In this document: positions 2,761 to 19,973 of the stretch, one piece after another
Layout: each line of letters starts with the position of its first letter
Position numbering within the stretch: the first letter of the stretch is position 1
Source: an uncultured virus (IMG/VR IMGVR_UViG_3300025325_000017)
Taxonomy: Duplodnaviria > Heunggongvirae > Uroviricota > Caudoviricetes
Length of the DNA stretch: 20,000 bases
Virus record (IMG/VR): IMGVR_UViG_3300025325_000017
Reading direction: 5' to 3' (one strand)
Translations under genes and position numbers: made by a program
The notes under the pieces: model-generated
The model's input: the letters and a program-made list of their open reading frames with translations, nothing else
What the model was told of the DNA's origin: nothing
Database searches by the model: none

Positions 2761-2782
2761 TTAGCATTCCAAGGAGTAAATA

Positions 2783-4003: not shown

Positions 4004-4028
4004 CACAACTTATTATAGGAGCTAAAAC

Positions 4029-4523: not shown

Positions 4524-4538
4524 TTGTTTAACTAACAA

Positions 4539-4570
4539 CCCCGCCTCGATAATGGGGCGGGGATTTTTTT
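4539..4570 (+). terminator. Rho-independent terminator
   Basis: CCCCGCCTC-loop-GGGGCGGGG stem followed by ATTTTTTT, after the coat/decoration genes. Confidence 0.8.
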
Positions 4571-4579
4571 GGGTGAAAA

Positions 4580-5382: not shown

Positions 5383-5391
5383 GGATCATAC

Positions 5392-5580
5392 ATGCCTATC
5401 AGAATGACACACCCGCGCCACGGCACTACCCATGCCGTCGGCGCAGAAGTGGACTGGAACAAAAAACATGGATGGGTTATTGATGAGGGGCCAAAAATAG
5501 TCTCCGAGGTTAAGGAGATTGAGGAGATTAAACCGATGAGACGCGGGCCCGGCCGTCCAAGGGCAGTCAAGGCGGAATAA
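5392..5580 (+). CDS. Small hypothetical protein with C-terminal RRGPGRPR (AT-hook-like) motif
   Basis: AAGGA RBS; basic C-terminal motif. Confidence 0.65.
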   Translation: MPIRMTHPRHGTTHAVGAEVDWNKKHGWVIDEGPKIVSEVKEIEEIKPMRRGPGRPRAVKAE

Positions 5581-5583
5581 ACG

Positions 5584-6300
5584 ATGGCGACTGCGCTAGC
5601 TATCATCACCAGGGCCATGCGGCTTGCGAGAGTTCTTCGTAAGGGAGAACCATTGGATTCCGATGAATCCACCGATGGATTGGTGGCCTTGAACACCATG
5701 TTGGATTCATGGCAACTAAGCCGGTTGTTTGTTTATCAGATAGTCCAAAATTCGCACACATGGCCCGCCTCGACATCTCTCCGCACTATTGGAATAGGCG
5801 GAAATTTCGCCGTACAGCGCCCCGTTAAAATAGACGGCGCTTTTGTCATGGATTCCAATTCTCAATGGTATCCGGTTGATGTTTTGACTGATCGCAATCA
5901 ATATGACGCCATCGTCACAAAGACAGTAACAAGCACCCTGCCGAATTACCTGTTCATGGATTCCGCCTATCCACTGGCCTCAATTTATCTCTATCCCGTT
6001 CCTTCCGTTGTGGTCACACTTAAACTCAATACCTGGCAGACACTTCAATCGTTCGCTGGATTAACCACTGAGCTTGCGCTGCCTCCGGGTTATCAGCGCG
6101 CCATCGAATTCAGCTTGGCGGAGGAATTCGGGCCGGAATTCGGAGTGGAAATTCCGGGGAAGGTGGAACAAATTGCCGTGCAAGCACGGGCAATCATACA
6201 AAACATGAATCGTCCCTCGATGATCGCGCAAGTAGATAGTGGGGCTGCATCGTTGGGTCAATCGGGCGGTAGGCGGAATATATATAGTGGTGGGCTATAA
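5584..6300 (+). CDS. Head-to-tail adaptor / packaged-DNA stabilisation protein (P22 gp4-like position)
   Basis: N-terminal 'TALAIITRAMRLARV...DGLVALNTMLDSW' and 'LPPGYQRAIEFSLA' motifs; synteny. Confidence 0.75.
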   Translation: MATALAIITRAMRLARVLRKGEPLDSDESTDGLVALNTMLDSWQLSRLFVYQIVQNSHTWPASTSLRTIGIGGNFAVQRPVKIDGAFVMDSNSQWYPVDVLTDRNQYDAIVTKTVTSTLPNYLFMDSAYPLASIYLYPVPSVVVTLKLNTWQTLQSFAGLTTELALPPGYQRAIEFSLAEEFGPEFGVEIPGKVEQIAVQARAIIQNMNRPSMIAQVDSGAASLGQSGGRRNIYSGGL

Positions 6301-7706: not shown

Positions 7707-8077
7707 CCATCAATGCCCCCCCCCTTGCGAGTCAGATTTCGACGAGGAAAGAAACGGTGATATGGCCGAGGCCCTGGGGGAATTGGATGACACAGGTATT
7801 TTTGGCCCTGTTTGGGTGGACCAGGACTTATACCGGCGTCCTGACTTATGATTTTGGGTCAATAGCGGCACAATCCCAGGCGACCACCACGGCGACGATC
7901 ACTGGCGTAAGATCGGGAGACGCTTTGATCGTAAGACCGGCCACGGCGGTAAACGGGGTCATTCTGGATGGATCCGTGACGGCTGATGATGTCGTGACGA
8001 TTAGGGCGGTGAACTATAGTATCGGCGCGGTTGACCCTGGATCGCAAAATTATCGAATCATCGTTTTTCAACAATGA
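7703..8077 (+). CDS. Hypothetical tail protein (in gp26 position, 124 aa)
   Basis: ATGA overlap with the gp10-like gene (start reassigned to 7703). Confidence 0.6.
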   Translation: MTINAPPLASQISTRKETVIWPRPWGNWMTQVFLALFGWTRTYTGVLTYDFGSIAAQSQATTTATITGVRSGDALIVRPATAVNGVILDGSVTADDVVTIRAVNYSIGAVDPGSQNYRIIVFQQ

Positions 8078-8083
8078 GGGGCT

Positions 8084-8131
8084 ATGGTTGAATTCATGTT
8101 GCTCGCCGCCCCGCGTTCCGGCACGACTTGG
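8084..8131 (+). pseudogene. Orphaned 5' fragment of the sulfotransferase-like gene (MVEFMLLAAPRSGTTW)
   Basis: GAGG RBS; 16 codons paralogous to MIEFMVLSAPRCGSTW at 8679-8726; in frame with the HNH ORF. Confidence 0.75.
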
Positions 8132-8137
8132 TATAAT
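8129..8137 (+). promoter_or_regulatory. Possible extended -10 promoter (TGGTATAAT) for HNH gene
   Basis: TGnTATAAT exactly at the insertion junction, about 27 bp upstream of the HNH ATG; no good -35. Confidence 0.4.
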
Positions 8138-8164
8138 AATGGCTTACTTTCTAAGGAGTGCGCC

Positions 8165-8686
8165 ATGAAAGATTACCAATGCAGCGTTTATGGATGCGAA
8201 AAGAACTCATCAAGATTAAAAATGTGCGATATGCATTACCGCAGGCTTAAACGACACGGGAATCCCGATATTGTTTTACAAGCTAAGGGGCTTTCTCTAA
8301 AGCAACGTTTTTATAATTCAGTAATAGTAAAAGATGGGTGTTGGGATTGGTCTAAAAAAATTAATAGCAATGGCTATGCAGCACTTTTTTTCGATGGGAA
8401 ATGGATGACAGGAAACAGAGCTTCTTGGATATTACACATAAGTAGTATTTTGCCTGGGATGCATGTTTTACATAAATGCGACAATAGAAAATGCACTAAT
8501 CCTGATCATCTTTTTTTGGGATCAAATAGTGAGAATGTTGCCGATAAGGTAAGCAAGGGAAGGCAATATAGAAAATATGCCAGTATGTGCTCCATAAATG
8601 GATGTGAAAATTCATCTAGAAAACTAGGTCTTTGCGTTTCTCATTACAATAAGCAATATCACGAAAATGTTAAAAAACATGATTGA
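8165..8686 (+). CDS. HNH homing endonuclease (Cys-rich, HNH_3-like)
   Basis: AAGGAG RBS before ATG 8165; 'CWDW', 'HVLHKCDNRKCTNPDHLFLGSNSENVAD' HNH motif; CSVYGC...CDMHY and CSINGC...CVSHY Zn modules; visibly AT-rich versus flanks. Confidence 0.9.
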   Translation: MKDYQCSVYGCEKNSSRLKMCDMHYRRLKRHGNPDIVLQAKGLSLKQRFYNSVIVKDGCWDWSKKINSNGYAALFFDGKWMTGNRASWILHISSILPGMHVLHKCDNRKCTNPDHLFLGSNSENVADKVSKGRQYRKYASMCSINGCENSSRKLGLCVSHYNKQYHENVKKHD

Positions 8687-9188
8687 ATTTATGGTATTGA
8701 GTGCGCCGAGATGCGGCAGTACATGGTGTGCTAACTGGTTGACTACGGACACAACCCTGTGTCTACACGACCCGTTGTTCACCAGACACTATACGGAATT
8801 GGATGAAATCCAGACAGAAAAACACCTTGGAATTTCTTGCACCGGGTTGGCTTTATTTCCGGAATGGGTGAATAAACATCCGGCGCGAAAAATCGTGCTG
8901 CATCGTGATATAAACGAAATCAACGAATCTCTCTCTGATCTGGGGTTCCCCGAAGTGGACATTGATTTTATCTTGAAACTGGAATCCATCGAAGCCATTC
9001 ATCTACCATGGACTGATTTATTTGATCGTCCTGATTTCATCCACGAAACACTTTTACAATTGCCATTCGATGCTGAACGGCATGCCCTGTTGAAGGAAAT
9101 TGAAATGCAACCGAAATTCGACAAACTTACCGTGAATCACGATGTAACGCGGCGATTCTTGAATAAGATCGCAACAGGAGGATGCTGA
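8679..9188 (+). CDS. Sulfotransferase-like / P-loop-fold protein
   Basis: N-terminal 'SAPRCGSTW' resembling the 5'-PSB PAPS-binding loop (PRSGTT), then 'LHDP' and 'IVLHRD'. Confidence 0.65.
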   Translation: MIEFMVLSAPRCGSTWCANWLTTDTTLCLHDPLFTRHYTELDEIQTEKHLGISCTGLALFPEWVNKHPARKIVLHRDINEINESLSDLGFPEVDIDFILKLESIEAIHLPWTDLFDRPDFIHETLLQLPFDAERHALLKEIEMQPKFDKLTVNHDVTRRFLNKIATGGC

Positions 9189-9189
9189 T

Positions 9190-10170
9190 ATGCCTTGGGG
9201 TTCATTGGTAGGAACAATCGTCGGCGGGATGATCGCGGGCGACGCCGCCGATGATGCTTCGTCGGCGATGACGGGCGCTTCCAAGGAAGCCATCGAGGAA
9301 CAAAGACGACAATACGACCAGACACAAGCGAATCTCGCCCCATGGTTGACTTCCGGACGGGCGGGCCTTACGCGAATGTCTCAACTTCTCGGTCTTCCTG
9401 GATTTTCCGCCAAGGATCAGGCTTTGACCGCCTTGGGTGGGGAGCCATCACGGGAATCGTTTACCAGCGCGGGAGGAGGAATTTCCCCCGAACATTGGAA
9501 TATTTTGGATCAAGCGGCAAAGGAAGAATATAACCGGCAGCACGGTCGCTTTATAATGAATTATGCCGCCCCAGATTATGAAAGAAAATTTGACCAAGCT
9601 GGATACGACGCGGCACTGAAGGACTGGAATTATAAAAGGACCGCTGCTGAGAGCCTTAAAGATGAAGCCGATTTCGGCGCACTGAACAAGAAATTCACCC
9701 TGGCGGATTTTTGGGATGATCCGATAACCAAGTCGTCTTATCAATCGGGATTGGACTTGGGAACCGAAGCCATTGATCGTATGACCGGAGCCAGGGGCAC
9801 GCGAAAATCCGGCGCGACGCTGAAAGAACTGTCACGATTCGGAACCGACTATACCGGACAGAAAGCCGGGGAATCCTATAATAGATTCTACGGCGATCAA
9901 GAAAGGACTTTGAATCGCTTGGCCGGCATCTCCGGCACTGGGCAGACAACCGGGCAATATCTTGGCGATACGGGCGGTCGTACCAGCGCAAACATCGGTA
10001 ATCTTTTGACTAATGCCGGTTCTGTCAGGGGCGCGGCGGCGATCCGACAAGGAAATATCTACGGCGGGATGGCGCAGAATATAGGAGATTGGTACACCCA
10101 AAAATCTTATAACGATGATGGTTCCCTCGATAGAAGCCAATCTTCAGCGACATCAACTTGGTATCCATAG
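9190..10170 (+). CDS. DNA ejection/pilot protein (P22 gp7-like)
   Basis: AGGAGG RBS; Gly/Ala hydrophobic N-terminus, 'AIEEQRRQYDQTQANLAPW', 'SGATLKELSRFG', 'NRLAGISGTGQ'. Confidence 0.75.
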   Translation: MPWGSLVGTIVGGMIAGDAADDASSAMTGASKEAIEEQRRQYDQTQANLAPWLTSGRAGLTRMSQLLGLPGFSAKDQALTALGGEPSRESFTSAGGGISPEHWNILDQAAKEEYNRQHGRFIMNYAAPDYERKFDQAGYDAALKDWNYKRTAAESLKDEADFGALNKKFTLADFWDDPITKSSYQSGLDLGTEAIDRMTGARGTRKSGATLKELSRFGTDYTGQKAGESYNRFYGDQERTLNRLAGISGTGQTTGQYLGDTGGRTSANIGNLLTNAGSVRGAAAIRQGNIYGGMAQNIGDWYTQKSYNDDGSLDRSQSSATSTWYP

Positions 10171-10179
10171 GAACTAGCC

Positions 10180-11163
10180 ATGCCACTTGATCCATCAATT
10201 TTTAATCAACTCGAAATGCCTCGGGCTCCATTGAACCCGATGGACCTGGAAAGAGACAGGCTGGCAAATACCGCCTTGCAACAGAAGTCGGTCGCCGGCT
10301 CACTTGCCCTTCATAGGGAGGCGCTTGTCAACGTAACTGATCCGACCCAAGCCGCCAAATGGATAAGGGACGGGTTCAATGATCGCAATCTAAGTCCTAT
10401 TCTGCAAAAAGCCGGCTCCCCGGAAGAAATAATTTCACGAATCCCTCAAGACCCGAAAGGATTCGCCGACTGGATAAAACGAAATGCCCTTGGGCTGGAA
10501 AAGTATTATGAATTGACAATGAAGCCTCAGAAATCTGGGTCATCTCCCATGCAACAAAGAAAATTCGATAAACAAATTTCTGATGATTTTAAATCAACGG
10601 GACAAGCGATGCAGACAATGGCGGAAATAACCAACGCCATAAAGACAGTCCGTGCATCCAAAGGATTATCGGCGAGAGAAGGTTATACCGGATATATTCC
10701 CTCCCTCCTTCAGGGCCCGGAAGCCATGAGCGCCCAAAATCGCATCGAAACACTCAAGGGGAAAGTTACCCAAATGGGGAAAGCCATGGCCACGATGTCC
10801 GGCGCAATAGGACCAATGGCGGTCCAAGAATGGAAAATCGTCGCTGATGCCATAAATGCAATAGACCCAACAGCGGGAAATTTGGAAGAACAACTTTCAA
10901 ATATAGAAGCACAAGCGATGGGCGCGTCGGAAAGAATAAAAGATTCGTATGACAGAACTTATGAAAATAAGTTCGAGAATTATCCGCAGTTTGAAACTGG
11001 GAATATAAGAATATATCCATCAACAACATCCCCTCGATCAAAACCAACGAATGTCCCCCTATCTCCAGCGCCAACGTCCCCGCCGCCTCAATCGCCTTCG
11101 CCGCCTCGTTACAGCAGAGAGCAAATCGAGGCTGAATTACGTCGCAGAAAGGTCATAAAATGA
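10180..11163 (+). CDS. Putative DNA ejection protein (gp20 position)
   Basis: 'MPLDPSI' start, helical composition, Pro-rich linker; synteny. Confidence 0.6.
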   Translation: MPLDPSIFNQLEMPRAPLNPMDLERDRLANTALQQKSVAGSLALHREALVNVTDPTQAAKWIRDGFNDRNLSPILQKAGSPEEIISRIPQDPKGFADWIKRNALGLEKYYELTMKPQKSGSSPMQQRKFDKQISDDFKSTGQAMQTMAEITNAIKTVRASKGLSAREGYTGYIPSLLQGPEAMSAQNRIETLKGKVTQMGKAMATMSGAIGPMAVQEWKIVADAINAIDPTAGNLEEQLSNIEAQAMGASERIKDSYDRTYENKFENYPQFETGNIRIYPSTTSPRSKPTNVPLSPAPTSPPPQSPSPPRYSREQIEAELRRRKVIK

Positions 11164-13193
11164 CCGACCTATCTTCCATGTCCACCAAGGACTTGATGAA
11201 GATGCGCGAGGAAGCATCGCTGACAGAGCTATCTTCCATGTCCACCGAGGACTTGATGAAGATGCGTCCCCAGATAACGTCATCTCAAGTCATGTCCCTT
11301 TTTAAGGGGGGGAAGCCGGTTGACGATTATCCTGTTCTGGCTTCCCCCATCGCTCGCGCGGGGTTGGGGGCTTATCAAGCCTTTATGGCCCCCATCCAAC
11401 TGGGGGCGAATGTAGGTGAAAAACTGGCTGATATATCCGGAGCTACCGATTTAAGTCGGCTGGTTAAAAAGAAGCTGGGCATACATACCGGCGGGAAGCC
11501 TCTTCTGAGCGCGGGGGGGCTTAATCAAACTTTAGGTGGATTGGAGGCCGCAAAACGCCAAGCCATGGCGGCAAGATCGGGAAGGCCGGTGGGAGAGGAA
11601 TGGGATATAGCCGGGCTTCTTGGTTCTTTGTATCCTGGAACGATGGCCTATAAAAGCATAGCCGGAGCTTTGCCTAAGGTCATTTCAGAACAAGCCCCTT
11701 CCCTGACAGGTCGCACTGTCGGGAGGATGCTTACGGGCGGCGGCACGGCGGCGCTTACTATCCCAGTAACTTCAGGTGGCGAGGATTTCTTTAATGAGAA
11801 AGGAATTCAGACCGGGATCGGCGCGGCTGTCCCCGTGGCGGCGTCTACACTAATTTCACTTCTCAAGGGGACGGGAAAGATCGGCGGTAAGATTTATTCG
11901 ACTTTGAGAGACGCCGCGCGTCTTCATACTAAGACAGGTCCGCAAAAAATAGCCGAAGCTCATTTCCAATCCATCGCCAAGGAAGGCGGAGAAGAAGCCA
12001 CGGGAAAGACGGTTAAATCACTGTTACAAGCAGAGAAGATATTAAATAAACCGACTTCTGCCGAGGCGATAGCGGCGGGGAATATCGGCAAGGGCGAAAG
12101 ATTCGGTGGACCGGTGGTGCGTTTGCAGGAAGAACTTGCAAGCCTGCCGGAGACAACCACCAAACTTCGTAGTATCGAGGCTGCACAAGAACAAATCCGA
12201 AAAGGTGCTATTGAGAATATCGCCAAGGGCACATCGGCGGAATCGGCGCTGCTAGAGCGCACAATTGCGGCGGCGAAGAATTACGACAAGGCGTTTTATA
12301 GAACTATAGATGGAAAGAAAATTCCTCATACGGCAACTCCAGACCGAGAATTGCAAACAATTTTCGATAAATTTGGAAACGATACGCCTAAAATTCTTGG
12401 TCGCGCCAAGGATTTGGCTGTCAAAGACGGCAAACAATTCAAAATTGGCGCGAAATATCCTATTGAATCTCTCCATTTTACAAAAATGGCGCTCGATGAC
12501 GTGATAAAAAATCCAGAACAATTCGGCATCGGCGCTTCCGAGGCCAGAGCCTTGGCAAGAACGCAAGGGGAACTTGTAAAATGGATTGGAGCCAAATCCA
12601 AGGCTTATGATTTTGCCCGGCAGGAACACAAGCGGCTTTCGGAGATTCTGAATCGCACTAAGGCCAGGGATACACTGGCGAATATTCTTACGGGGCCAAA
12701 AGGGGAAGAAAGAGCGACACAATTCTTGAATGCTACCAGAGATATTCCGAAGACTTTCAAGAAAGCAACGGGATCGCAACGATACGCGAAATTGGAAGAT
12801 ATTTTATTGCCGAATGAAACGATGCTGGTCAATAAAGTAACCCGTGAATTGGAAAGAGAAGCCATGGCAGGGAGAATGGCGAAGGAAGTTAATCTTCCAG
12901 GCGCAGTCAACCCAGTAACGGGGAAAATGGAAAGTTTGCCGCAGATGTTGTGGACCCCAAATATGATTGCAAAATGGGTCATGCGAATCAGCGGCAGGGA
13001 AGGCGATAAGGAAGTAAACAAAATTGCCGCTGACATCGCCGCCAATCCATCTCGCGCGGCCGAAGTAATCAGCAGGCTTCCTTCCAGATTGCAAACTATG
13101 GGCAAAAATCTTTTATCCGATTTGGATGAATTCCTGAAAACCGAAATAGCAAAAACCGCCGCCATTCAGGGCACGAACAGATTGAGAGAATAG
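11160..13193 (+). CDS. Putative DNA ejection protein (gp16 position, 677 aa)
   Basis: ATGA overlap; long A/G/K-rich helical protein; synteny before tail fibre. Confidence 0.6.
   Translation: MTDLSSMSTKDLMKMREEASLTELSSMSTEDLMKMRPQITSSQVMSLFKGGKPVDDYPVLASPIARAGLGAYQAFMAPIQLGANVGEKLADISGATDLSRLVKKKLGIHTGGKPLLSAGGLNQTLGGLEAAKRQAMAARSGRPVGEEWDIAGLLGSLYPGTMAYKSIAGALPKVISEQAPSLTGRTVGRMLTGGGTAALTIPVTSGGEDFFNEKGIQTGIGAAVPVAASTLISLLKGTGKIGGKIYSTLRDAARLHTKTGPQKIAEAHFQSIAKEGGEEATGKTVKSLLQAEKILNKPTSAEAIAAGNIGKGERFGGPVVRLQEELASLPETTTKLRSIEAAQEQIRKGAIENIAKGTSAESALLERTIAAAKNYDKAFYRTIDGKKIPHTATPDRELQTIFDKFGNDTPKILGRAKDLAVKDGKQFKIGAKYPIESLHFTKMALDDVIKNPEQFGIGASEARALARTQGELVKWIGAKSKAYDFARQEHKRLSEILNRTKARDTLANILTGPKGEERATQFLNATRDIPKTFKKATGSQRYAKLEDILLPNETMLVNKVTRELEREAMAGRMAKEVNLPGAVNPVTGKMESLPQMLWTPNMIAKWVMRISGREGDKEVNKIAADIAANPSRAAEVISRLPSRLQTMGKNLLSDLDEFLKTEIAKTAAIQGTNRLRE
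11161..11266 (+). repeat. Tandem near-identical ~46-bp repeat, 60-bp period (TDLSSMSTKDLMKMR / TELSSMSTEDLMKMR)
   Basis: ctatcttccatgtccacc(a/g)aggacttgatgaagatgcg occurs twice. Confidence 0.9.
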
Positions 13194-13201
13194 GATAAAA
13201 C

Positions 13202-14605
13202 ATGGCCGTCAAATTATTATTCAACGACATCCCGGCATTTTTCGATTCCAACGGCGACCCGCTCAACGGCGGTAAGTTGTTCACCTATGCCGCCGGTTCC
13301 AGCACCAAACAAAATACTTATACGACTTCCGCTGGAACAGTCGCACACGCCAATCCCATTATTCTCAATTCCAGGGGAGAACCCGCCAATGCGATATGGG
13401 GAACAGTTGGAATATCTTATAAATTAGTCTTATCTCCATCCACCGATTCCGATCCTCCCGCCGCGTCTTTCTGGACCATAGATAATATCACGCCGATAAA
13501 TGACGCCAATACACTGCTGGATCAATGGTTGACTGGGCCATCTCCGACATATATCAATGCCACGCAATTCACCCTGGTCGGAGATCAGACAACAACATTT
13601 CACGTTGGGCGCAGATTAAAAACGACTAACACCGGCGGATCAATTTATAGCACGATCACAACCACGGCTTACACGACGTTGACTACGGTCACAGTAGTCA
13701 ACGATTCTGGGTCCTTGGATTCGGGATTAAGCGCGGTTAGTTATGGGCTTTTAACTGCTTCCGATGCGGCGGTTCCGTGGGCCAAAATCGCTTCTACTGG
13801 ATGGACTTTCATCAAGGCAGTTACCATGTCCGACGTAGTTACCATGTCCGGGAAGTCTATCATCGAGGCCAATGCTTCCATCGCCGCTCACGCCACGACC
13901 ATGAACCCGTGGAGTCTAGGTAACTATGTAACCGCTACCGGCACGGCTGTAACTTTCACCGATCTCGCCGATGCCCCGCAAGCCGGGGCCGAAGTCGAGA
14001 TATACATGAATGCCGCGCACACCTGGACGAATAACGCCAACCTTGAGGTGGATGGGAATGCCAATTACATAGCGACGGTGGGAGATAGGGTATTGCTCCG
14101 CGCCAAATCCACGACTGTAACCACCGTGCATCCTCGGAGAAAGGCCGGATCTGGCAAGCTCATTCAGCGCGTCGAGGCGACTCCGTATACGGCGTATACG
14201 ACCATAAACACAGCCATCCCGGGCGACGACACAATTCCGCAAAATACCGAAGGCGCCGAAATGCAGACGGTGTCCATCACACCGACGAACAGCAACAATC
14301 GCCTGGTCATCCGAGCTAGTTGTACATGCCTGAGTCACAGCGGCGCCGGAATGCTTCTAGGTGCGATATTCCAGGATGCCACGGCGGATGCCCTGGCCGT
14401 AGGGAATGTCCAATCGTCCGCTGTTGGCGCACCGATACAACTAGTGGTCACGCATGAAATGGCTGCAAACCAGATAACCGAAACGATGTTTAAATTCCGC
14501 CTGGGTCCGAACTCTGGTCAAATGTATGTAAACGGCAACAACACTGCGCGGCTCATGGGTGGCTTAAACAACGTCAGGTTTTTAGTCGAGGAAATTGCAA
14601 CGTGA
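13202..14605 (+). CDS. Tail fibre/tailspike with N-terminal head-binding-type domain
   Basis: 'FFDSNGDPLNGGKLFTYAAGSSTK...NPIILNSRGE' N-terminus typical of podovirus fibre anchors; Thr-rich modular body. Confidence 0.8.
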   Translation: MAVKLLFNDIPAFFDSNGDPLNGGKLFTYAAGSSTKQNTYTTSAGTVAHANPIILNSRGEPANAIWGTVGISYKLVLSPSTDSDPPAASFWTIDNITPINDANTLLDQWLTGPSPTYINATQFTLVGDQTTTFHVGRRLKTTNTGGSIYSTITTTAYTTLTTVTVVNDSGSLDSGLSAVSYGLLTASDAAVPWAKIASTGWTFIKAVTMSDVVTMSGKSIIEANASIAAHATTMNPWSLGNYVTATGTAVTFTDLADAPQAGAEVEIYMNAAHTWTNNANLEVDGNANYIATVGDRVLLRAKSTTVTTVHPRRKAGSGKLIQRVEATPYTAYTTINTAIPGDDTIPQNTEGAEMQTVSITPTNSNNRLVIRASCTCLSHSGAGMLLGAIFQDATADALAVGNVQSSAVGAPIQLVVTHEMAANQITETMFKFRLGPNSGQMYVNGNNTARLMGGLNNVRFLVEEIAT

Positions 14606-15093
14606 TGTCGCTAGGCTTTCTAAGCAACCATGCCGCTCTGCATGCACTCGGAGCCACGATAGTCACATCCACCGATTTTGAGACCAGTTATGCGCCGGAC
14701 AATCTGGACATTTCCGGTCTGGCCGCCGCCGTCCTCGCGGCGGCAAAGGCTTCTAAGAAGAAACAATTGCAAGCGGTTTATGATCTAAAGATGTCCTCCG
14801 GATTCACCTCCTCCGCCCTCGGTGCCGCATATATCTACGCCACCGACGATGACCGCAAGGCGATCCTGACCGCAGGAGCCTTGCGCGCGTTTCGGGGGTT
14901 GACACAGAATTATTATTGCACTGATGTCGCCACCGGAATCGGCGCCATTCGTGCTCATACTCCCGCGCAGATGCTCCAGGTGTTGGACAATGCCGAAGCC
15001 ATAGCGCAGGCGTATTTAAGCAGTCTGCTCGCTAAGACGGCGGCGGTGACAACGGCAGCGACCGAAGCAGAGATAAATGCTATTAGCTGGTGA
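14602..15093 (+). CDS. Tail fibre assembly/chaperone-like protein (DUF4376-like)
   Basis: Follows fibre gene; 'GFTSSALGAAYIY', 'HTPAQMLQV', C-terminal 'EINAISW'. Confidence 0.7.
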   Translation: MMSLGFLSNHAALHALGATIVTSTDFETSYAPDNLDISGLAAAVLAAAKASKKKQLQAVYDLKMSSGFTSSALGAAYIYATDDDRKAILTAGALRAFRGLTQNYYCTDVATGIGAIRAHTPAQMLQVLDNAEAIAQAYLSSLLAKTAAVTTAATEAEINAISW

Positions 15094-15115
15094 ACCGATT
15101 GAGGAGGAATGGTGG

Positions 15116-15412
15116 ATGAACCAGGAAGAAATCAAACGGCTGGCGGCGACGCTGGCACCACAAATCATCGCGTCCATCCGCGAATCAAAGCATGATTTCT
15201 GGATAGACCCGGAGAACCATTTCAGGGCGCACATCGTAATGGACCAATTCGCCGAGTGTCTTGACATGGAGACATTACAGACCTTGCGCGATCTACTCAA
15301 GGCGTATCGCAGGGGAAGAAAGCTATTCTTTGCGGCGTTCGTCGGGTTGATGATCGTCGGCGCGCTCGGACTGGTCGCTATCGCAATCGGAATGAAACCG
15401 CCATGGAAATGA
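15116..15412 (+). CDS. Putative holin/antiholin-like membrane protein (1 C-terminal TM)
   Basis: GAGGAGG RBS before ATG 15116; RRGRK followed by hydrophobic helix; precedes endolysin. Confidence 0.55.
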   Translation: MNQEEIKRLAATLAPQIIASIRESKHDFWIDPENHFRAHIVMDQFAECLDMETLQTLRDLLKAYRRGRKLFFAAFVGLMIVGALGLVAIAIGMKPPWK

Positions 15413-15876
15413 ACAAATTCGATAGGGCAATCGATCTTATTTTGGCCGAGGAAGGAGGATATGTAATAGATCCGCTTGATCCTGGCGGAGAAACAAAATA
15501 TGGAATTTCCAAACGCGCGTATCCTGAAATCAACATCGGCAGCCTGACTTTGGATCAGGCGAAGACTATCTACATGCGCGATTATTGGGAGCCATGTAAG
15601 TGCGACAGTCTGCCTTGGCCATTGTCCTTATTTGTTTTCGATGCCGCTGTCAATCAAGGAACTGACGCGGCGATCAAGATGCTGCAACATACGCTACAGA
15701 CCAATCAAGACGGCATTATCGGTTCCGTGACTTTAAGGCTCGCCGGGGAATCTCGGAAATGGCACTGGGCGCGCTTCATGGCCTTCCGAACCATGAGGTA
15801 TCAAGGCACCCGCAACTATGATCGTTTCGGTGAAAACTGGTTGATCCGTATATTCCGGATCGCTATGGAGGCCTAG
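15403..15876 (+). CDS. Endolysin, glycoside hydrolase family 108
   Basis: 'EEGGYVIDPLDPGGETKYGIS' and 'FDAAVNQG' GH108 motifs; 'DGIIGSVT' peptidoglycan-binding-like segment. Confidence 0.9.
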   Translation: MEMNKFDRAIDLILAEEGGYVIDPLDPGGETKYGISKRAYPEINIGSLTLDQAKTIYMRDYWEPCKCDSLPWPLSLFVFDAAVNQGTDAAIKMLQHTLQTNQDGIIGSVTLRLAGESRKWHWARFMAFRTMRYQGTRNYDRFGENWLIRIFRIAMEA

Positions 15877-15877
15877 G

Positions 15878-16255
15878 ATGGAAACTATTCTCGCGTCACT
15901 TGTCGCCCCCGCTGCTGTTGATATGCTCAAAAATCTATTCGCGTCAGCTTCCCGCAAATGGATCGGGTTATCGGTGGACGATCAGATCAAATTAGAGAAC
16001 GCTAATATAGAGAGGCTGAAAGCCCTGGCGCTGTTGGATAATCCCAACGGAACACCTTCTCAATGGGTTATAAACCTCCGTGGGGCCTCCAGGTACGTCG
16101 CAGTCATCCTGTCCGTGGGGGTAGGGGCGGGGATGATGTTAAAGGCCACCACGCCCGAACTGGAGGTCTTGGGCTTTGAGCTTGTCGCCATGCCTGTCAG
16201 CTTCCTTTTCGGCGAAAGAATGTATCTTGGATTCAAAGGTAACATGGCTAAATGA
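15878..16255 (+). CDS. Putative holin (3TM holin-like)
   Basis: GGAGG RBS; 'PSQWVINLRGASRY', two hydrophobic segments and 'FLFGER'; adjacent to endolysin. Confidence 0.65.
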   Translation: METILASLVAPAAVDMLKNLFASASRKWIGLSVDDQIKLENANIERLKALALLDNPNGTPSQWVINLRGASRYVAVILSVGVGAGMMLKATTPELEVLGFELVAMPVSFLFGERMYLGFKGNMAK

Positions 16256-16275
16256 AATCTATCCTGCGATAGGTG

Positions 16276-16303
16276 GAATTCTGTCTAATACACTGTGTTA
16301 TAC
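16276..16303 (+). other. attI-like site 1 (GTCTAAT-ACACTGT-GTTATAC); 21-bp direct repeat with 19500-19520
   Basis: GAATTCTGTCTAATACACTGT identical to 19500-19520; lies at the left boundary of the array; 2 extra nt (GT) before the GTT core. Confidence 0.65.
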
Positions 16304-16462
16304 GGCAATGTTTTTACGGCACTGGTCCCATGCCAGAGCAGGGGTTTTCCCCCAGGCAAGGAGCGTTGCCGGTCCTTCTTCCCAAATGTGGTAACCACCC
16401 CATGTTGCCCGACAACAAAAGGCTCTCGGTATTATATTCAGTACAAACTGTTTCGCGGTCAT
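16298..16462 (-). CDS. Cassette ORF, hypothetical (54 aa, MTAKQFVLNIIP...KNIAV)
   Basis: GAGGA RBS; stop TAA is the TTA of the GTTA core. Confidence 0.65.
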   Translation of the reverse strand: MTAKQFVLNIIPRAFCCRATWGGYHIWEEGPATLLAWGKTPALAWDQCRKNIAV

Positions 16463-16474
16463 GTTGTGGTCCTC

Positions 16475-16535
16475 GTGTAACAAGTCATTCCAGCCGATCC
16501 TCGCTACGCTCGGGCGGCTGAATTCCGGCTTATAC
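16475..16535 (+). repeat. attC-like site (R' lacks the G: C-TTATAC)
   Basis: GTGTAAC-AAGTC-ATTCCAGCCG...CGGCTGAAT-TCCGGC-TTATAC; extra C in L''; CTCGCTACGCTCG loop. Confidence 0.8.
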
Positions 16536-17192
16536 GTTGCGCTCGCAATCATCGTTTTTGCGGCAAATTATCCAGAAGCAATGACGCTTCCGGGCGTGGT
16601 GCGCGGTTTTCCATTTCGTTGAAACCATCGGCCCTTTCCTGATTTTTACAATCAGATCGCAGACCGTGAAACCCGCTTCCTCGGCCATCCGCATAAAATC
16701 AGCGTGCGGCCATTTCGATTTGTGGTTGTTCACCATGTCGGTGATTTTGGCGAGCAGCAAGCCGTTCGGCTTTAATACGCGCATGGCCTGTTTTAAGAAC
16801 GGCGGATAGAGATAACTCAGGTTCCAATCCTGGTCGACCCCGCATTCCATTGTCGCGCCGAAGTCCACGTCGAAACGCTTTTTGCTTTTGTCCCGCCCTT
16901 GCGGGCCGACATGGGGCGGATCGAATATTACCGCACCATACGTCGCTGCCTTGACGCCATTCATTACTCGATTGTCGCCAACAATCATTGGTTTGTATCG
17001 CGGGTCAATGTCCATCGACACCACTTTTCGCTTTGAGCCTTTCCACATGCGCCCGGCGTTGTAGGTTGAATCAAGAATCGGCTCGGGTGGGATTGTCGGG
17101 TAGAACTTGAACATCGCTTCCAGCAAATCGGAATCGTTTCCTTCCCACACGCTGCTAATCGGAGCGTAAAGGAATGGTGCGAGGTCAGTCAC
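16530..17192 (-). CDS. DNA amino-methyltransferase (N6A/N4C type)
   Basis: Motif I-like 'ILDSTYNAGRMW', motif IV-like 'FDPPH', 'AMRVLKPNGLL'; GTGA overlap with upstream ORF; stop in attC core. Confidence 0.8.
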   Translation of the reverse strand: MTDLAPFLYAPISSVWEGNDSDLLEAMFKFYPTIPPEPILDSTYNAGRMWKGSKRKVVSMDIDPRYKPMIVGDNRVMNGVKAATYGAVIFDPPHVGPQGRDKSKKRFDVDFGATMECGVDQDWNLSYLYPPFLKQAMRVLKPNGLLLAKITDMVNNHKSKWPHADFMRMAEEAGFTVCDLIVKIRKGPMVSTKWKTAHHARKRHCFWIICRKNDDCERNV

Positions 17193-17374
17193 GGGCGAAT
17201 TCCAAATGAGTCACGAAAAATACCAGTACATGCACAACAAAACCAAGTATGCCCGTTGTCCCGGCTATAGTGCCAAACATCATGCTGGCAAACGCGGCAG
17301 TAGGAAGTCCGACTCATAACAACTGGCTGGAACCGACGCCGGAGACAGCGCAGCATGTTTCCTGTAGCGTTCAT
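17189..17374 (-). CDS. Small Cys-rich (CxxC...CxxC) putative zinc-ribbon protein; start uncertain (17374, 17356 or 17317)
   Basis: CRVC...CCAC; ATGA and GTGA overlaps with both neighbours; N-terminus encoded through the attC. Confidence 0.55.
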   Translation of the reverse strand: MNATGNMLRCLRRRFQPVVMSRTSYCRVCQHDVWHYSRDNGHTWFCCACTGIFRDSFGIRP

Positions 17375-17404
17375 GGCCGGCGCGGTTCATCCATGGCGTT
17401 ATGG
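17314..17404 (+). repeat. attC-like site
   Basis: TCATAAC-AACTG-GCTGGAACCGACGCCGG...CCGGCGCGGTTCATCC-ATGGC-GTTATGG. Confidence 0.8.
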
Positions 17405-17643
17405 TGAACAACCGATGCCCAATGTACTGTGATGAAATTCTGTAAAAACTCAGAATCATCACCCATCGTCGGCCTTCCCTGTGATTTTGCCACGCTACGC
17501 GCAAGGTTCACGCAATCATGCACAGTCGCCCGCAGCGTAATATGTGCTGAAATATCGTTCCCCTCTGGGCCAGTAGCGGGCCAAGGCTCTCTCCACTCAA
17601 GTTCTGCGGTGTGCCTATTTTCTAGCAGATCGTCAATGTTCAT
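17371..17643 (-). CDS. Cassette ORF, hypothetical (90 aa)
   Basis: GGAGG RBS; reads through R'/L' of attC; ATGA coupling at both ends. Confidence 0.7.
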   Translation of the reverse strand: MNIDDLLENRHTAELEWREPWPATGPEGNDISAHITLRATVHDCVNLARSVAKSQGRPTMGDDSEFLQNFITVHWASVVHHNAMDEPRRP

Positions 17644-17828
17644 AGTTCCTCCGTGCGCTCGCCGGTTAAGGGCGCGTTAGGCAACGTATATTGATGATAG
17701 TATTTCCTTGTAAGCCTTTCGTATGTTTCAGCTCGTTCTTTATGAAGCCAAAAAGGATAAAGAAGTTCTGCTTCTTCCAAGGCTTTCTTCCTTGCCAGTT
17801 CCATCAACCCTACATAATCGAGTTCCAT
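17640..17828 (-). CDS. Cassette ORF, hypothetical (62 aa)
   Basis: AAGGAGG RBS; C-terminus PNAPLTGERTEEL encoded by the attC half site. Confidence 0.7.
   Translation of the reverse strand: MELDYVGLMELARKKALEEAELLYPFWLHKERAETYERLTRKYYHQYTLPNAPLTGERTEEL
17656..17682 (+). repeat. Right-half attC remnant (L'-R' only)
   Basis: CGCTCGCCGGTTAAG-GGCGC-GTTAGGC; GTTAGGCAA is the reverse complement of TTGCCTAAC at 17839-17847. Confidence 0.75.
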
Positions 17829-17924
17829 TCAACCTCCTTTGCCTAACAAGCGGTTCGAGATCGGACGGGCCTCGTCAGTGCCGTGTGCGGTTTCGTCGCC
17901 TTCTATTGGTTTCTCACCACTCAT
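17829..17924 (-). CDS. attC-encoded bridging mini-ORF (31 aa, MSGEKPIEGDETAHG...LLGKGG)
   Basis: GGAG RBS in attC loop; ATGA overlap with upstream stop; TGA abuts ATG of downstream gene. Confidence 0.45.
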   Translation of the reverse strand: MSGEKPIEGDETAHGTDEARPISNRLLGKGG

Positions 17925-17972
17925 GGTTTCTCATCTCCGTTATCGGCCCGCCGCTCAACCGCAGCGTTAGAT
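17841..17972 (+). repeat. attC-like site (132 bp)
   Basis: GCCTAAC-AAGC-GGTTCGAGATCGGACGGGCC...GGCCCGCCGCTCAACC-GCAGC-GTTAGAT; extra C in L''. Confidence 0.88.
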
Positions 17973-18178
17973 GGTGTAAACCCCATCTGTTCCGGCACCC
18001 CGACATAAGTCAGAAGCCGCACAGTTTCCTCACGCCACATAACAAAATAAAAATCATCCTGGCCGTGAAGCAACCCGATAAAAATATATTCGTTGCCTTC
18101 TTCGTCGAAATACTTGTTCCCTATTAAGGGCTCGTATTCTTTAACCAGATTTGTCCAATTATCATCTGCGTATGCCAT
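17921..18178 (-). CDS. Cassette ORF, hypothetical (85 aa)
   Basis: GAGG RBS and ATG overlap the R'' end of the attC; C-terminus SNAAVERRA encoded by the next attC arm. Confidence 0.75.
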   Translation of the reverse strand: MAYADDNWTNLVKEYEPLIGNKYFDEEGNEYIFIGLLHGQDDFYFVMWREETVRLLTYVGVPEQMGFTPSNAAVERRADNGDEKP

Positions 18179-18263
18179 CTAACCTCGCCTTGAACCGGAC
18201 GCGGGTTACGCCGCGCCGTTTCCTGTTGTTGAATCAGCCGCGCCGGTTATGGCGGCGTTATAC
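18177..18263 (+). repeat. attC-like site (87 bp)
   Basis: ATCTAAC-CTCG-CCTTGAACCGGACGCGG...CCGCGCCGGTTATGG-CGGC-GTTATAC. Confidence 0.88.
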
Positions 18264-18569
18264 GGCATCCCCTTTGTAGGTAAGGCTTAAGCCGCTCTGT
18301 CCGTCCGTACAGCACCATATCTGCGGTAGTTGCGGGTATGGTGTTCCGGTGTTTGGCGCTTCGACCCAACGCGGAACGTGTGATGTTTCAAGCGGCCACG
18401 GCGGGGAGCGATCACGCTCGATAATAATCGGAACGGAAGGAATGAACTTAGAACCGAAAAGCTCGTGTAGTTGATCGTGCAATTCCTTTGCTTCTTCAAT
18501 AGAAAGCTCAACCTTCTTGCCGTCTTTCGTCTCAAGTTCAATCTTCGTTAGTTTCAATTTCTTTGTCAT
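18258..18569 (-). CDS. Cassette ORF, hypothetical phage-type protein (103 aa)
   Basis: GGAG RBS; 'KKVELSIEEAKELHDQLHELFG'; stop TAA in the GTTA core. Confidence 0.75.
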   Translation of the reverse strand: MTKKLKLTKIELETKDGKKVELSIEEAKELHDQLHELFGSKFIPSVPIIIERDRSPPWPLETSHVPRWVEAPNTGTPYPQLPQIWCCTDGQSGLSLTYKGDAV

Positions 18570-18597
18570 GTCAGTCTCCGTTGTAGAAGAAAATGCC

Positions 18598-18654
18598 GTA
18601 TAACACGGCGCTCATGCCGACTCGCTACGCTCGCGGCATAGCTAGGCGTTGGGC
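18598..18654 (+). repeat. attC-like site (57 bp, canonical short type)
   Basis: GTATAAC-ACGGC-GCTCATGCCGAC-TCGCTACGCTC-GCGGCATAGC-TAGGC-GTTGGGC; two unpaired bases in the left arm. Confidence 0.92.
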
Positions 18655-18821
18655 GTCAAAATTTTTAGTGACAATTCCACTACGCATAAAGCACTTCCGA
18701 CTTGAGCAAGGCATCGAAATTTATTGTTTAGTGTTGGTGTTGGCTCACCGATCAAGAAAATTCCTGGCGAAATCTCTTTACCGTCCATTTTAGGCAATTC
18801 CAAATTACCAATAATCTCCAT
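18642..18821 (-). CDS. Cassette ORF, hypothetical (59 aa, MEIIGNLELPKMDGKEISPG...ILTPNA), not in ORF track
   Basis: Manual translation; AAGGA RBS; fills the cassette exactly. Confidence 0.7.
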   Translation of the reverse strand: MEIIGNLELPKMDGKEISPGIFLIGEPTPTLNNKFRCLAQVGSALCVVELSLKILTPNA

Positions 18822-18840
18822 GTCTATTTTCGTCCTTCAC

Positions 18841-18963
18841 GCCCAACCCGGCGCTCAACGCGGACGCTGCGCCAGCGGGCGTCTCGTCGGCTTGTGGTTT
18901 CTGGTCGTTCATCGCTTCGGCTCCTGTTCGTGGCGCGCAGCGCCGGTTAGCTCTACGTTAGAA
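18841..18963 (+). repeat. attC-like site (123 bp)
   Basis: GCCCAAC-CCGGC-GCTCAACGCGGACGCTGCGCCA...TGGCGCGCAGCGCCGGTTAGC-TCTAC-GTTAGAA. Confidence 0.9.
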
Positions 18964-19244
18964 CGCACACGCTCGCACATAGCCTCGTGCATGGCCTCGG
19001 CTTCTTCCCATGTCGTGCAACGGTCTTGCTCTTGATCGAGCTTACCGCCGAATATCATCGTTTCAAAAAGAAGCGGGGGGCCGTCACCGTATTGATGGTT
19101 GAGGCCAAGAAAAACCGTGCTCACTTCAACATCATCAATGGTCGTTTTACGAACTGCCCGGTCTGTTCTTTCAAACCTTCGTGCCCAAGTCATCAAGTCG
19201 GTTTTTACGGCCTTGTGTCCTTCAAGAATGTAGTGATCGCTCAT
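18909..19244 (-). CDS. Cassette ORF, hypothetical phage-type protein (111 aa)
   Basis: AAAGGAG RBS before ATG 19244; 'VSTVFLGLNH...GPPLLFETMIFGG' motif I recall from phage hypotheticals (unverified); C-terminus SNVELTGAAR from attC arm. Confidence 0.8.
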   Translation of the reverse strand: MSDHYILEGHKAVKTDLMTWARRFERTDRAVRKTTIDDVEVSTVFLGLNHQYGDGPPLLFETMIFGGKLDQEQDRCTTWEEAEAMHEAMCERVRSNVELTGAARHEQEPKR

Positions 19245-19257
19245 AAATTCTCCTTTG

Positions 19258-19440
19258 TTAATCCTTGGCCGCATTCCTGACCTGGATGTTAGTACTCAAT
19301 GCGCGAATATCTTTTGCAGTGCCTCGCTGCTCTACAATGCACGCAGATGCTTCGACAGCTGTATCGTATGCCTTGCGAGCTAGTACAATATCTGCATCGC
19401 AACCGTACTTGACACTTGAAATAAACTCTTCAAACTTCAT
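19258..19440 (-). CDS. Cassette-derived ORF, hypothetical (60 aa)
   Basis: GAGG RBS; C-terminus TNIQVRNAA encoded by a half attC. Confidence 0.65.
   Translation of the reverse strand: MKFEEFISSVKYGCDADIVLARKAYDTAVEASACIVEQRGTAKDIRALSTNIQVRNAAKD
19267..19294 (+). repeat. Probable right-half attC remnant
   Basis: GGCCGCATTCCTGACC-TGGAT-GTTAGTA, same L'-5 nt-R' spacing as other right arms; no matching left arm found. Confidence 0.5.
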
Positions 19441-19499
19441 CGTTATAACCTCATAAAGCCAGCCGGGATAGTCAGCGCGCCCCTAATCTTTCGTGGGCA

Positions 19500-19525
19500 G
19501 AATTCTGTCTAATACACTGTTAGCC
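19500..19525 (+). other. attI-like site 2 (GTCTAAT-ACACT-GTTAGCC)
   Basis: Inverse core, 5-nt spacer and GTT core like the attI1 simple site (CCCTAAA-ACAAA-GTTAGGC); GTTAGCCCTCT matches AGAGGGCTAAC of the next attC. Confidence 0.75.
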
Positions 19526-19666
19526 CTCTCGGGCCTTCGCTACACGCTCCAGGTATCGGCGCACTCGTTCCCAGTCTTTCGGGTGGACCCATACCTGCCG
19601 GAGCGTGTAGCCCTTGGCACGCATCCTTGCGCGCTCGTCCCGCTTCCGTTGGGCGGCATCCTTCAC
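19520..19666 (-). CDS. Small basic putative DNA-binding protein, RHH/antitoxin-like (48 aa, MKDAAQRKRDERARMRAKGYTLRQVWVHPKDWERVRRYLERVAKAREG), not in ORF track
   Basis: Manual translation; GTGA overlap with upstream ORF; stop in GTTA core; 'R.RMRAKG...QVWV.P' pattern resembles DUF3018/MazE-like proteins. Confidence 0.65.
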   Translation of the reverse strand: MKDAAQRKRDERARMRAKGYTLRQVWVHPKDWERVRRYLERVAKAREG

Positions 19667-19839
19667 GGATAAATCCACCTGTACACTTCTTCCCCGCCTT
19701 CATCTTGGTCGAAGCGCACTAACCAATACTCCCCGTCCCCGCACTTCACGTCTTCGGCTTCAAGCAGGGTTGCCGTTCCCTCGTACTTTATTTTCGTAAT
19801 TGGGTCTTCGTAAATTTCTAATCTGTCGTATGGTTTCAT
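19663..19839 (-). CDS. Hypothetical acidic protein (58 aa, MKPYDRLEIYEDPITK...YRWIYP), not in ORF track
   Basis: Manual translation; AGGAGG RBS; directly downstream of consensus promoter. Confidence 0.75.
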   Translation of the reverse strand: MKPYDRLEIYEDPITKIKYEGTATLLEAEDVKCGDGEYWLVRFDQDEGGEEVYRWIYP

Positions 19840-19877
19840 GCTTCCTCCTGTTGTCGTAGCTCGATTGCTACAGACAC

Positions 19878-19906
19878 ATTATAGCACGTGACATGTCACA
19901 TGTCAA
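19878..19906 (-). promoter_or_regulatory. Consensus sigma70 promoter TTGACA-N17-TATAAT with extended -10, overlapping palindromic operator GTGACATGTCAC
   Basis: Minus strand reads TTGACA TGTGACATGTCACGTGC TATAAT; perfect 12-bp palindrome at 19888-19899. Confidence 0.88.
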
Positions 19907-19909: not shown

Positions 19910-19973
19910 GGCTAACACGGCGCTCCACCGGATCGCGCGCTACGGCGCGCTCCCGGTGAGCTTGGCGTTAGAG
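19910..19973 (+). repeat. attC-like site (64 bp)
   Basis: GGCTAAC-ACGGC-GCTCCACCGGA...CCGGTGAGC-TTGGC-GTTAGAG; extra C in L''. Confidence 0.92.

Follow-up and report, generated by a model that had tools for sequence, protein, structure and literature searches.

In integrons, the choice of the attC strand sets promoterless cassette genes in the right direction behind the cassette promoter Pc (Nivina 2016, PMC5027507). Rows of attC sites also occur apart from integrases: two or more attCs that share a strand, are spaced by less than 4 kb and have no integrase nearby define an attC cluster without integron integrases (CALIN) (Cury et al. 2016, PMC4889954). CALINs have already been published from phages: phage attCs, including those of phage H101, were recombined by IntI1, and bottom strands recombined more than top strands (Qi 2023, PMC9892861). 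Here we describe an array of this kind in a stretch of 20,000 nucleotides from an uncultured virus of the Caudoviricetes (IMG/VR record IMGVR_UViG_3300025325_000017; the whole stretch is called the window below). Its attC sites have their top strand on the plus strand, and every credible gene of the array region (window 16298-19839) is on the minus strand.

The phage is lambdoid, P22-like and has a genome of about 40 kb; its habitat is soil and groundwater. The nearest virus record (G001; 39,924 bp, CheckV 96%) is identical to the window over the common parts, and the window joins the two ends of this record with 119 extra bases. A position in G001 is the window position minus 16115.

Comparison with described systems

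The phage arrays of Qi 2023 (PMC9892861) and the array of the window have much in common: rows of attCs, single small genes, no integrase and methyltransferase cargo. The available part of that paper calls the arrays of TJE1 and PH101 typical in structure and has, in that part, no remark on gene strand relative to attC polarity. Further differences from the arrays described there are the repeated attI-like sites of the phage of the window and its two arrays in mirror arrangement. At the level of literature listings and abstracts, we found no published description of systematic gene-strand reversal, of repeated attI-like sites or of mirrored arrays.

Seven plus strand sites within 3.5 kb and no integrase make the array a CALIN by definition. 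Its sites have the structure of attCs: core boxes, polarity-setting unpaired bases on one arm, and complementarity between R'' and R'. It is not a complete integron, as there is no intI with attI and Pc beside the array, and its units are not canonical cassettes, in which Pc drives an ORF (open reading frame) that is on the attC top strand and has its own attC behind it: the genes are on the opposite strand. Bacterial cassettes of class 1 integrons and of chromosomal arrays near intI1-type integrases have the same attC anatomy, with the unpaired bases (positions 16 and ~23), the complementarity and the G|TT crossover. Unlike in these cassettes, the genes of the window are on the bottom strand, there is no intI and no Pc beside attI, and the attI-like site is at the transcription-distal end.

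Some promoter-bearing bacterial cassettes lie in reverse orientation. Promoter-bearing toxin-antitoxin cassettes (Richard et al. 2024, PMC13108822) can be likened to one unit of the window, a two-gene cassette with its own perfect promoter (19520-19906); unlike them, the other cassettes of the window have no detectable promoter and would rely on read-through. The arrays are also similar to the 'moron' and ea/nin-type regions of lambdoid phages: both consist of small accessory genes, occupy the distal end of the early-left operon and the stretch directly behind the early-right promoter, and are mosaic between relatives. Unlike in those regions, the mosaic units of the window are bounded by attCs with the signatures of integron recombination.

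The attC sites have their top strand on the plus strand

Rfam has no attC family, and its sole match (22.6 bits) is a chance match. A covariance model (R1) was built from 21 attC sites near intI1-type integrases, with the top strand set by the position of the integrase. The reference consisted of 80 loci around intI1-type integrases; palindromic RYYYAAC...GTTRRRY candidates on the integrase-fixed strand were retained only where R' complements the next R'', a criterion that is blind to polarity. The training set was 21 of 39 representatives with a length of 57-80 nt; 13 longer sites were left out, as were three evident non-attC sequences and the sites of one locus with a truncated intI and thus unsafe polarity (L061). 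In a control with four loci, 13/13 matches were on the integrase-defined strand, with 8-22 bits on the opposite strand, and in a control with 27 loci, training sites included, the same was true for 52/52 matches at E <= 1e-4.

On the window, R1 identifies seven attC sites with 26-46 bits, all of them on the plus strand and all aligned to the model from end to end (model positions 1-71). These are at 16475-16535 (37.3 bits, E 5.8e-7), 17314-17404 (the weakest of the seven, 26.3 bits, E 1.9e-4), 17841-17972 (long loop, 30.3 bits), 18177-18263 (33.2 bits), 18598-18654 (36.2 bits), 18841-18963 (long loop, 36.9 bits) and 19910-19973 (45.8 bits). The minus strand is listed at only two of the seven places at E up to 10, with 15.2 bits for the last site and 8.0 bits for the site at 18598-18654; the plus strand is thus preferred by 18-31 bits or more.

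The sequences themselves show the inverse core RYYYAAC and core GTTRRRY boxes at both ends of the sites. On the plus strand the arm pairs are ATTCCAG/CTGAAT, GCTCATG/CATAGC, GCTCCAC/GTGAGC and GGTTCGAG/CTCAACC, with the extra base at model position 16. This is the same place as in the sense strand of the aadA1 attC of plasmid R100 (R'' GTCTAAC, 5-nt spacer, L'' GTTCAAGC, L' GCTTAAC, R' GTTAGAT), where L'' is one base longer than L'. The window sites have a second unpaired A near position 23 on the plus strand; an unpaired base at position 16 and another one near position 23, both on the 5' arm, are found in most of the 39 reference representatives. Two strand features described in Nivina 2016 (PMC5027507) agree more weakly than R1: the bottom strand folds more stably in 9/12 sites of the phage (40/47 reference sites) and the top strand is purine-poor in 10/12 (41/47 reference sites). 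R' is perfectly complementary (7/7) to the next R'' at 5/8 junctions of the window, a symmetric property that sets no polarity.

The hairpins are genuine attC sites and the plus strand is their top strand. The preliminary description of the window had arrived at this polarity from the extra base in the left arm and had proposed a covariance model as a check for attCs on the minus strand: the assignment of all seven sites to the plus strand and the agreement with aadA1 now confirm it.

The cassette genes are on the minus strand

A codon-usage log-odds score was trained on the structural genes of the phage. Within 16298-19839, 10 of the 12 minus strand ORFs have a positive score, one scores 0 and one is negative, and all 14 competing plus strand ORFs are negative. 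The picture is similar for the whole leftward block, with 22 positive, one zero and four negative scores among 27 minus strand ORFs and negative scores for 17/18 competing plus strand ORFs. The Pfam and PHROG matches of this block (methyltransferase, CxxCxxCC, SLT, exonuclease) are on the minus strand too. An 85-aa ORF has two homologues that are about 80% identical, and 30/48 and 28/44 of the substitutions, respectively, fall on codon position 3 of the minus strand frame. Every credible gene of the stretch is thus on the minus strand, as the preliminary description had stated for about 12 ORFs. The termini that it had pointed out are all present in the ORF translations: four ORFs stop on the TAA within (G)TTA (16298, 16530, 18258 and 19520), and the tails PNAPLTG, SNAAVER, SNVELTG and TNIQVR read into the attC arms.

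Across the phage, 12/12 attCs are antisense to the genes (binomial p 5e-4 against an expectation of 50:50). Since the attC top strand is the plus strand and all genes of the stretch are on the minus strand, the coding strand is the recombinogenic bottom strand. Read in the sense of the gene, the mobile unit is attC, ribosome site and gene; a bacterial cassette has the reverse order, gene and then attC.

The genes are small and all on the minus strand. The leftmost ORF (16298-16552; 84 aa as listed) ends with the TAA of a GTTA and is likely to start at an internal ATG at 16462, just after an attC. It is next to a DNA methyltransferase gene of 220 aa (16530-17192; phrog_24333, E 9e-22; PF01555 below cut-off). 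A hydrophobic 32-aa ORF (17185-17283), the sequence of which is kept in the related phage G002, is overlapped by a 61-aa ORF (17189-17374) with poor coding potential and a negative codon score. The 90-aa ORF at 17371-17643 has a tail that enters an attC and shares a 4-base overlap (ATGA) with the 62-aa ORF at 17640-17828, whose PNAPLTG tail spans an isolated L'-R' half-site (GTTAGGC, 17676-17682). The 85-aa ORF with the position-3 substitutions (17921-18178) occurs in three array contexts; its ribosome site and ATG are within the L''/R'' end of the attC at 18177-18263. Further right are ORFs of 103 aa (18258-18569; stop TAA in GTTA), 59 aa (18642-18821; codon score 0, the weakest gene call), 121 aa (18909-19274; tail SNVELTG enters an attC) and 60 aa (19258-19440). 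A degenerate, short attC-like remnant, missed by R1, is found at about 19255-19295, after the 60-aa ORF.

The last unit is the two-gene cassette (19520-19839) with genes of 58 aa (19663-19839) and then 52 aa (19520-19678); its attC is the one at 19910-19973, just outside the array region as first described. The cassette looks like a small regulator or a toxin-antitoxin pair (weak match to phrog_536, E 2.8e-4). A perfect sigma-70-type promoter (TTGACA, 17 nt, TATAAT, with TG; 12/12) is at 19878-19906 on the minus strand (G001 3791-3763) and is predicted to drive the two-gene cassette and probably the downstream cassettes too. A palindrome (TGTGACATGTCACA-like) at 19868-19906 overlaps this promoter, which suggests possible autoregulation by one of the two small proteins.

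attI-like sites

G001 has three copies (window 16276, window 19500 and G001 8630) of a direct repeat of 21 bases that is part of an attI-like site with the consensus G(A/T)TAGGYG-GAATTCT-GTCTAAT-ACACTG|TTRRRY. Copy 1 (16268-16297, plus strand) reads GATAGGTG-GAATTCT-GTCTAAT-ACACTGTG|TTATAC, with the putative crossover between 16297 and 16298; copy 2 (19492-19519, plus strand) reads ACACTG|TTAGCC, with the putative crossover between 19519 and 19520. Exact-match scans of viral and metagenome contigs found the site in seven distinct contexts. Conservation extends up to ACACTG, and what comes next is TTATAC (behind two extra bases), TTAGCC, TTAGGC, TTATGC, TTAGGG, TTAGGA or TTAGAT; different cassettes start directly after the G|TT. 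A conserved site at the top-strand 5' end of an array, with variable cassettes after G|TT, is what is expected of an attI; conservation on the left and variability on the right of G|TT also bear out the earlier suggestion that these sites agree with plus strand polarity. In gene sense, the copies are at the downstream (promoter-distal) end of each sub-array.

The layout of the site (core-like repeat G(A/T)TAGGC, 8 nt, GTCTAAT, 5 nt, GTTRRRY) is similar to that of attI1 (GTTACGC, 13 nt, CCCTAAA, 5 nt (ACAAA), GTTAAAC), and it resembles the simple site of attI1 in having an inverse-core-like box, a 5-nt spacer, GTTRRRY and an upstream core-like repeat. Like attG sites (Loot et al. preprint, 10.1101/2022.09.11.507474), it may permit cassette entry outside a classical integron. 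Unlike attI1 and attG, it is present in three copies per genome, is common to different phages and has no adjoining intI: a cognate intI was not found beside any copy in G001 or in three related records (G002-G004).

A mirrored array at the start of the early-right operon

R1 identifies nine plus strand attCs in G001, all in the leftward block, and three minus strand attCs at 9803-9860, 10104-10176 and 10724-10781, the first and the last of which are near-identical (49.8 and 49.3 bits). The three minus strand attCs are immediately to the right of the early control region, in the first part of the early-right operon. Between these attCs are rightward genes on the plus strand, one of the Mom family (PF25680, 76 bits) and two small ones (63 aa and 95 aa). 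Both polarity and gene strand are flipped in the right array and the rule therefore follows the direction of transcription, not the strand of the genome. We considered the direction of replication as an origin of the polarity and set it aside: the opposite polarities across the early control region follow transcription.

A 12-base inverted repeat flanks the right block of G001 (9803-11262), with GATTTGTTAGGG at 9848-9859 and CCCTAACAAATC at 11244-11255, and the block has a degenerate attC at about 11097-11190.

Cassettes are shuffled among related phages

The cassettes are common to, and shuffled among, related phages. Record G003 has one extra unit between the end of the late genes and the attI-like site, consisting of a minus strand ORF and, right of it, a plus strand attC, with G|TTAGGG and G|TTAGGC at the borders of the unit. 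This order fits the insertion of a unit TTRRRY...gene (antisense)...attC-G; with the opposite polarity, the attC would be on the other side. The cassette with the 85-aa gene is at three different places in three records, and its left border is (G/A)|TTAGATGG in the most divergent context.

Variants in contigs of four DNA runs break at 17333 (in L''), 17646, 18182 (at R'' AA|C), 18591 (7 nt left of R'') and 18840 (left edge of R''). Where attCs are common to different cassettes, such breakpoints are expected under either polarity. One further joint, a 'skip' from 15898 to 18144, was disregarded because its short side has only 21 letters.

Several side observations concern the same regions. A truncated attC (only R'', an AATTC spacer and L'') at G001 9334-9360 directly adjoins a backbone gene of 86 aa at its 3' end. 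The relative L101 has another truncated attC fused to this gene, and in either record the stop codon of the gene is within attC-derived sequence. In G004, the early region is inverted relative to the end of the late genes: 6.5 kb are 99.95% identical to G001 (4630-11117) and the late-gene end is only 81-84% identical. The inversion joint is at an attC, in the L'-spacer-GTTAGCG part, and the same joint is present in contigs from two samples; the inversion would span roughly 9 kb, and possible origins are integrase-type recombination between attCs of opposite orientation, mosaic recombination and a chimeric assembly. Two related phages have a tRNA-Trp (CCA) in the cassette region (L094 619-694, minus strand; L105 15960-16035, plus strand) that is co-oriented with the cassette genes and absent from G001.

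Cassette orientation in other phages and in bacterial controls

Phage H101 has three attCs on the plus strand, and 12/12 annotated coding sequences of the stretch are on the minus strand. Its plus strand at 76529-76585 is the top-strand oligonucleotide of PH101_attC2 in Table S3 of Qi 2023 (PMC9892861). The published phage ctTUS972 has four attCs on the minus strand, among plus strand genes. At E <= 0.01, R1 had no match in six further phages with published CALINs, namely P12002L, jenny 12G5, H188, Shewanella phage 3/49, PhiCHU and Atu_ph02.

The preliminary description had suggested tabulating ORF against attC orientation in phage contigs, and this was done with a sample of IMG/VR. The sample was drawn with one motif, which is present in at least 128 stretches, and all numbers for IMG/VR refer to the flanks of 80 of these loci; the contigs were used without a check for kinship. 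Five of the sampled contigs were checked and are 90-100% complete (CheckV). There are 139 R1 matches at E <= 1e-3 and 75 non-redundant cassettes between sites on the same strand. The longest ORF is antisense in the majority of cassettes (50 antisense, 25 sense), and this is also true for calls with a ratio of at least 1.5 (29 antisense, 11 sense). In bacterial arrays beside intI1-type integrases, the longest ORF is sense in 33/35 cassettes (Fisher p 4e-10 for IMG/VR versus bacterial arrays).

Domain matches were counted for Pfam at E <= 1e-3 on ORFs of at least 85 aa: 10/49 antisense and 0/30 sense ORFs of the IMG/VR sample are supported (from seven contigs), versus 17/31 sense and 1/15 antisense ORFs (an IS110 transposase) in the bacterial arrays (Fisher p = 8e-7). 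Seven antisense matches above the Pfam cut-off are a C5 methylase, two N6/N4 methylases, Lar, NADAR, RLIG1 and DUF2528. Two calls that were 'sense' by length were reversed by antisense domain matches (NADAR and DUF2528), and the length rule therefore undercounts reversal.

A true IntI is encoded by two of 34 contigs of this kind that were searched. One (G014) is canonical, with both cassettes in sense. The other (G007) is a viral contig of 40.2 kb, labelled provirus, with an IntI of 390 bits (cut-off 265). Its first 4600 bases contain intI on the minus strand (1-1035), attI, a junction G|TTAGGC at 1081 and seven attCs on the plus strand, arranged like a canonical integron platform. The cassette genes are on the minus strand, co-directional with intI, as judged from GC content by codon position and from PHROG matches (2/8 antisense ORFs, 0/5 sense ORFs). 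The end of the first cassette gene is 13 bases ahead of the start codon of intI; read-through from the cassettes would therefore continue into intI, which would be the final gene of the cassette operon. Nucleotide similarity to G001 is absent from the first 9 kb of the contig. This integron may be in the prophage or in the host flank.

Position in the phage genome and expression

The leftward genes start at window 16298 and form a minus strand block of 9.5 kb in G001. The block is headed by a Cro-like gene (PF14549; G001 9485-9694) with a promoter match (10/12) directly upstream, and it also encodes an exonuclease, a phrog_862 protein and a transglycosylase (Pfam/PHROG). Because of the Cro-like start, the promoter match and this gene content, the block is the early-left operon, and the array is at its far end. 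The late genes run towards it on the plus strand of the window (1-16255: scaffold, major head protein, head closure protein, ejection proteins, tail fibre, endolysin), the last one being a phrog_28107 gene at 15878-16255, and the two operons converge at 16255-16298.

The preliminary description had proposed that the cassettes are built for expression from the distal end, convergent with the late operon, and silent behind a host Pc. The convergence is there and distal-end expression of the cassettes is plausible from the layout; that they are 'built for' it is conjecture. The phage was found in no RNA run. By the strand rules in the literature (Nivina 2016, PMC5027507), the cassettes would point away from a host Pc.

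No tyrosine recombinase (PF00589 or TIGR02249) was found in G001, which is 96% complete and has its ends bridged by the window, or in G002-G004. The explanation that we favour, with a probability of roughly 60% for the whole including the mechanism, is that the stretch is the promoter-distal part of an integrase-less integron-type array (CALIN) that takes up the accessory section of the early-left operon. The host or a co-resident element would provide an integron integrase in trans, and this enzyme would insert and excise cassettes at G|TT of the folded bottom strand. Expression of the cassette genes would come from the early promoters, by read-through, and from the internal promoter (19878-19906). 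A reversed array would express only reversed cassettes, and excision between co-oriented attCs would also yield only reversed ones; reversal would thus persist and the phages would keep their own, self-perpetuating cassette pool. Single-strandedness has a known role in attC recombination (Richard et al. 2024, PMC13108822); more speculatively, folding might be favoured with the bottom strand as the non-template strand of a heavily transcribed operon.

Several points weigh against this explanation or restrict it. As the phage has no integrase, catalysis by IntI is something we only infer, and R1 was trained exclusively on attCs near intI1-type integrases. Copy 1 of the attI-like site has two extra bases (TG) compared to the other copies. 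The three copies of the 85-aa cassette diverge within the attC loop and not at the right-hand G|TT, and the mixed breakpoints of the variants also fit homologous recombination between common attC sequences. In the IMG/VR sample, the viral label was taken as given and the longest-ORF rule is crude. Finally, reversal is not universal: phage TJE1 is canonical, with 3/3 attCs on the plus strand and plus strand genes (R1), and the relative G002 has, in an otherwise antisense array, one sense cassette, a 130-aa plus strand ORF ending in the R'' of a plus strand attC (L105 4158-4741), which would face operon transcription.

Alternative explanations

The hairpins could be attC-like in form only, serving as linkers or weak terminators, with genes exchanged by homology, no integrase at work and the polarity a by-product. 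The absence of a recombinase from four related records is in line with this, and so are the variant breakpoints at several places in and beside attCs and the presence of near-identical attCs at different places of G001 (9803-9860 and 10724-10781). However, the sites score up to 50 bits, compared to 33-69 bits for integrase-side sites, R' perfectly complements the next R'' at 5/8 junctions, seven different cassettes begin at the G|TT of the attI-like site and IntI1 recombined such phage attCs in experiments (Qi 2023, PMC9892861). Moreover, homologous exchange alone gives no uniform polarity that is tied to gene direction on both arms of the early region. We consider this explanation unlikely.

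We give somewhat less credit to a recombinase other than IntI, such as host XerC/D or another tyrosine recombinase, for which the reversed strand would be normal. The phage has indeed no IntI, yet its sites fit the model of IntI1-associated attCs, both unpaired bases included; G007, with the same motif class and reversed genes, has a true IntI well above the cut-off, and IntI1 recombined the attCs of H101 (Qi 2023, PMC9892861).

It is still less likely that the phage passively captured part of a bacterial chromosomal integron, with the antisense layout an accident of insertion. In favour of this, fragments of chromosomal integrons are published from functional Vibrio phages (Qi 2023, PMC9892861), and the truncated attC at G001 9334-9360 abuts a backbone gene. 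However, with 33/35 bacterial cassettes in sense, a captured piece would carry plus strand genes here. Further evidence against capture is that the sub-arrays are interleaved with the core genes for exonuclease, phrog_862 protein and transglycosylase, that arrays of mirrored polarity are on both sides of the early control region, that the cargo (methyltransferase, Mom) is typical of phages and that the same reversal is present in unrelated phages.

The least probable alternative is a misassigned polarity, with the minus strand as the real top strand, ordinary gene-then-attC cassettes and a phage early promoter as Pc: the ORFs do end in or just inside the RYYYAAC box, entering the hairpin as many bacterial cassette ORFs do, the R''/R' complementarity across ORFs is symmetric and fits either polarity, and one variant breaks exactly at ATCTAA|C (window 18182), but R1 prefers the plus strand by 18-31 bits or more and was correct for 52/52 controls and TJE1, the unpaired bases are placed as in the sense strand of the aadA1 attC, fold stability and purine skew favour the plus strand as top strand, the attI-like site is conserved left and variable right of G|TT in seven contexts, the extra unit of G003 has its attC on the side expected from a plus top strand, and the polarity given by the model for H101 is the 'top' strand of the published assays (Qi 2023, PMC9892861).

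A possible cassette pool of phages

An array with all genes on the bottom strand uncouples gene direction from attC polarity, and so does the IMG/VR sample with its ten antisense and no sense ORFs supported by domains. This suggests a separate cassette economy on the side of the phages. Tentatively, we propose that phages keep their own pool of reverse-polarity cassettes, which would be exchanged at phage-borne attI-like sites, located where early operons end downstream, by the IntI of the host or, in some phages (G007), of the phage, and which would be silent in bacterial integrons and active in phages. If this is true, the recombinogenic strand is the non-template strand, and anti-defence genes (methylases, Mom, Lar, NADAR) shuffle in a channel that runs parallel to the defence cassettes of bacteria.

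Reversed arrays thus bear on how phages acquire anti-restriction and other counter-defence genes. They also bear on the birth of cassettes, as a phage gene caught between two co-oriented attCs would become a reversed cassette, and on surveys of integrons in viromes, where present tools report attC strand and coding sequences without comparing the two.

Other features of the window and of G001

Two features are outside the arrays. An HNH endonuclease gene is found among the late structural genes (window 8084-8686). In G001, a GC-rich run of GCCGCC-type repeats (4960-5080) is within an ORF of 184 aa (4925-5479) that is DUF7666-like, with a match below the cut-off.

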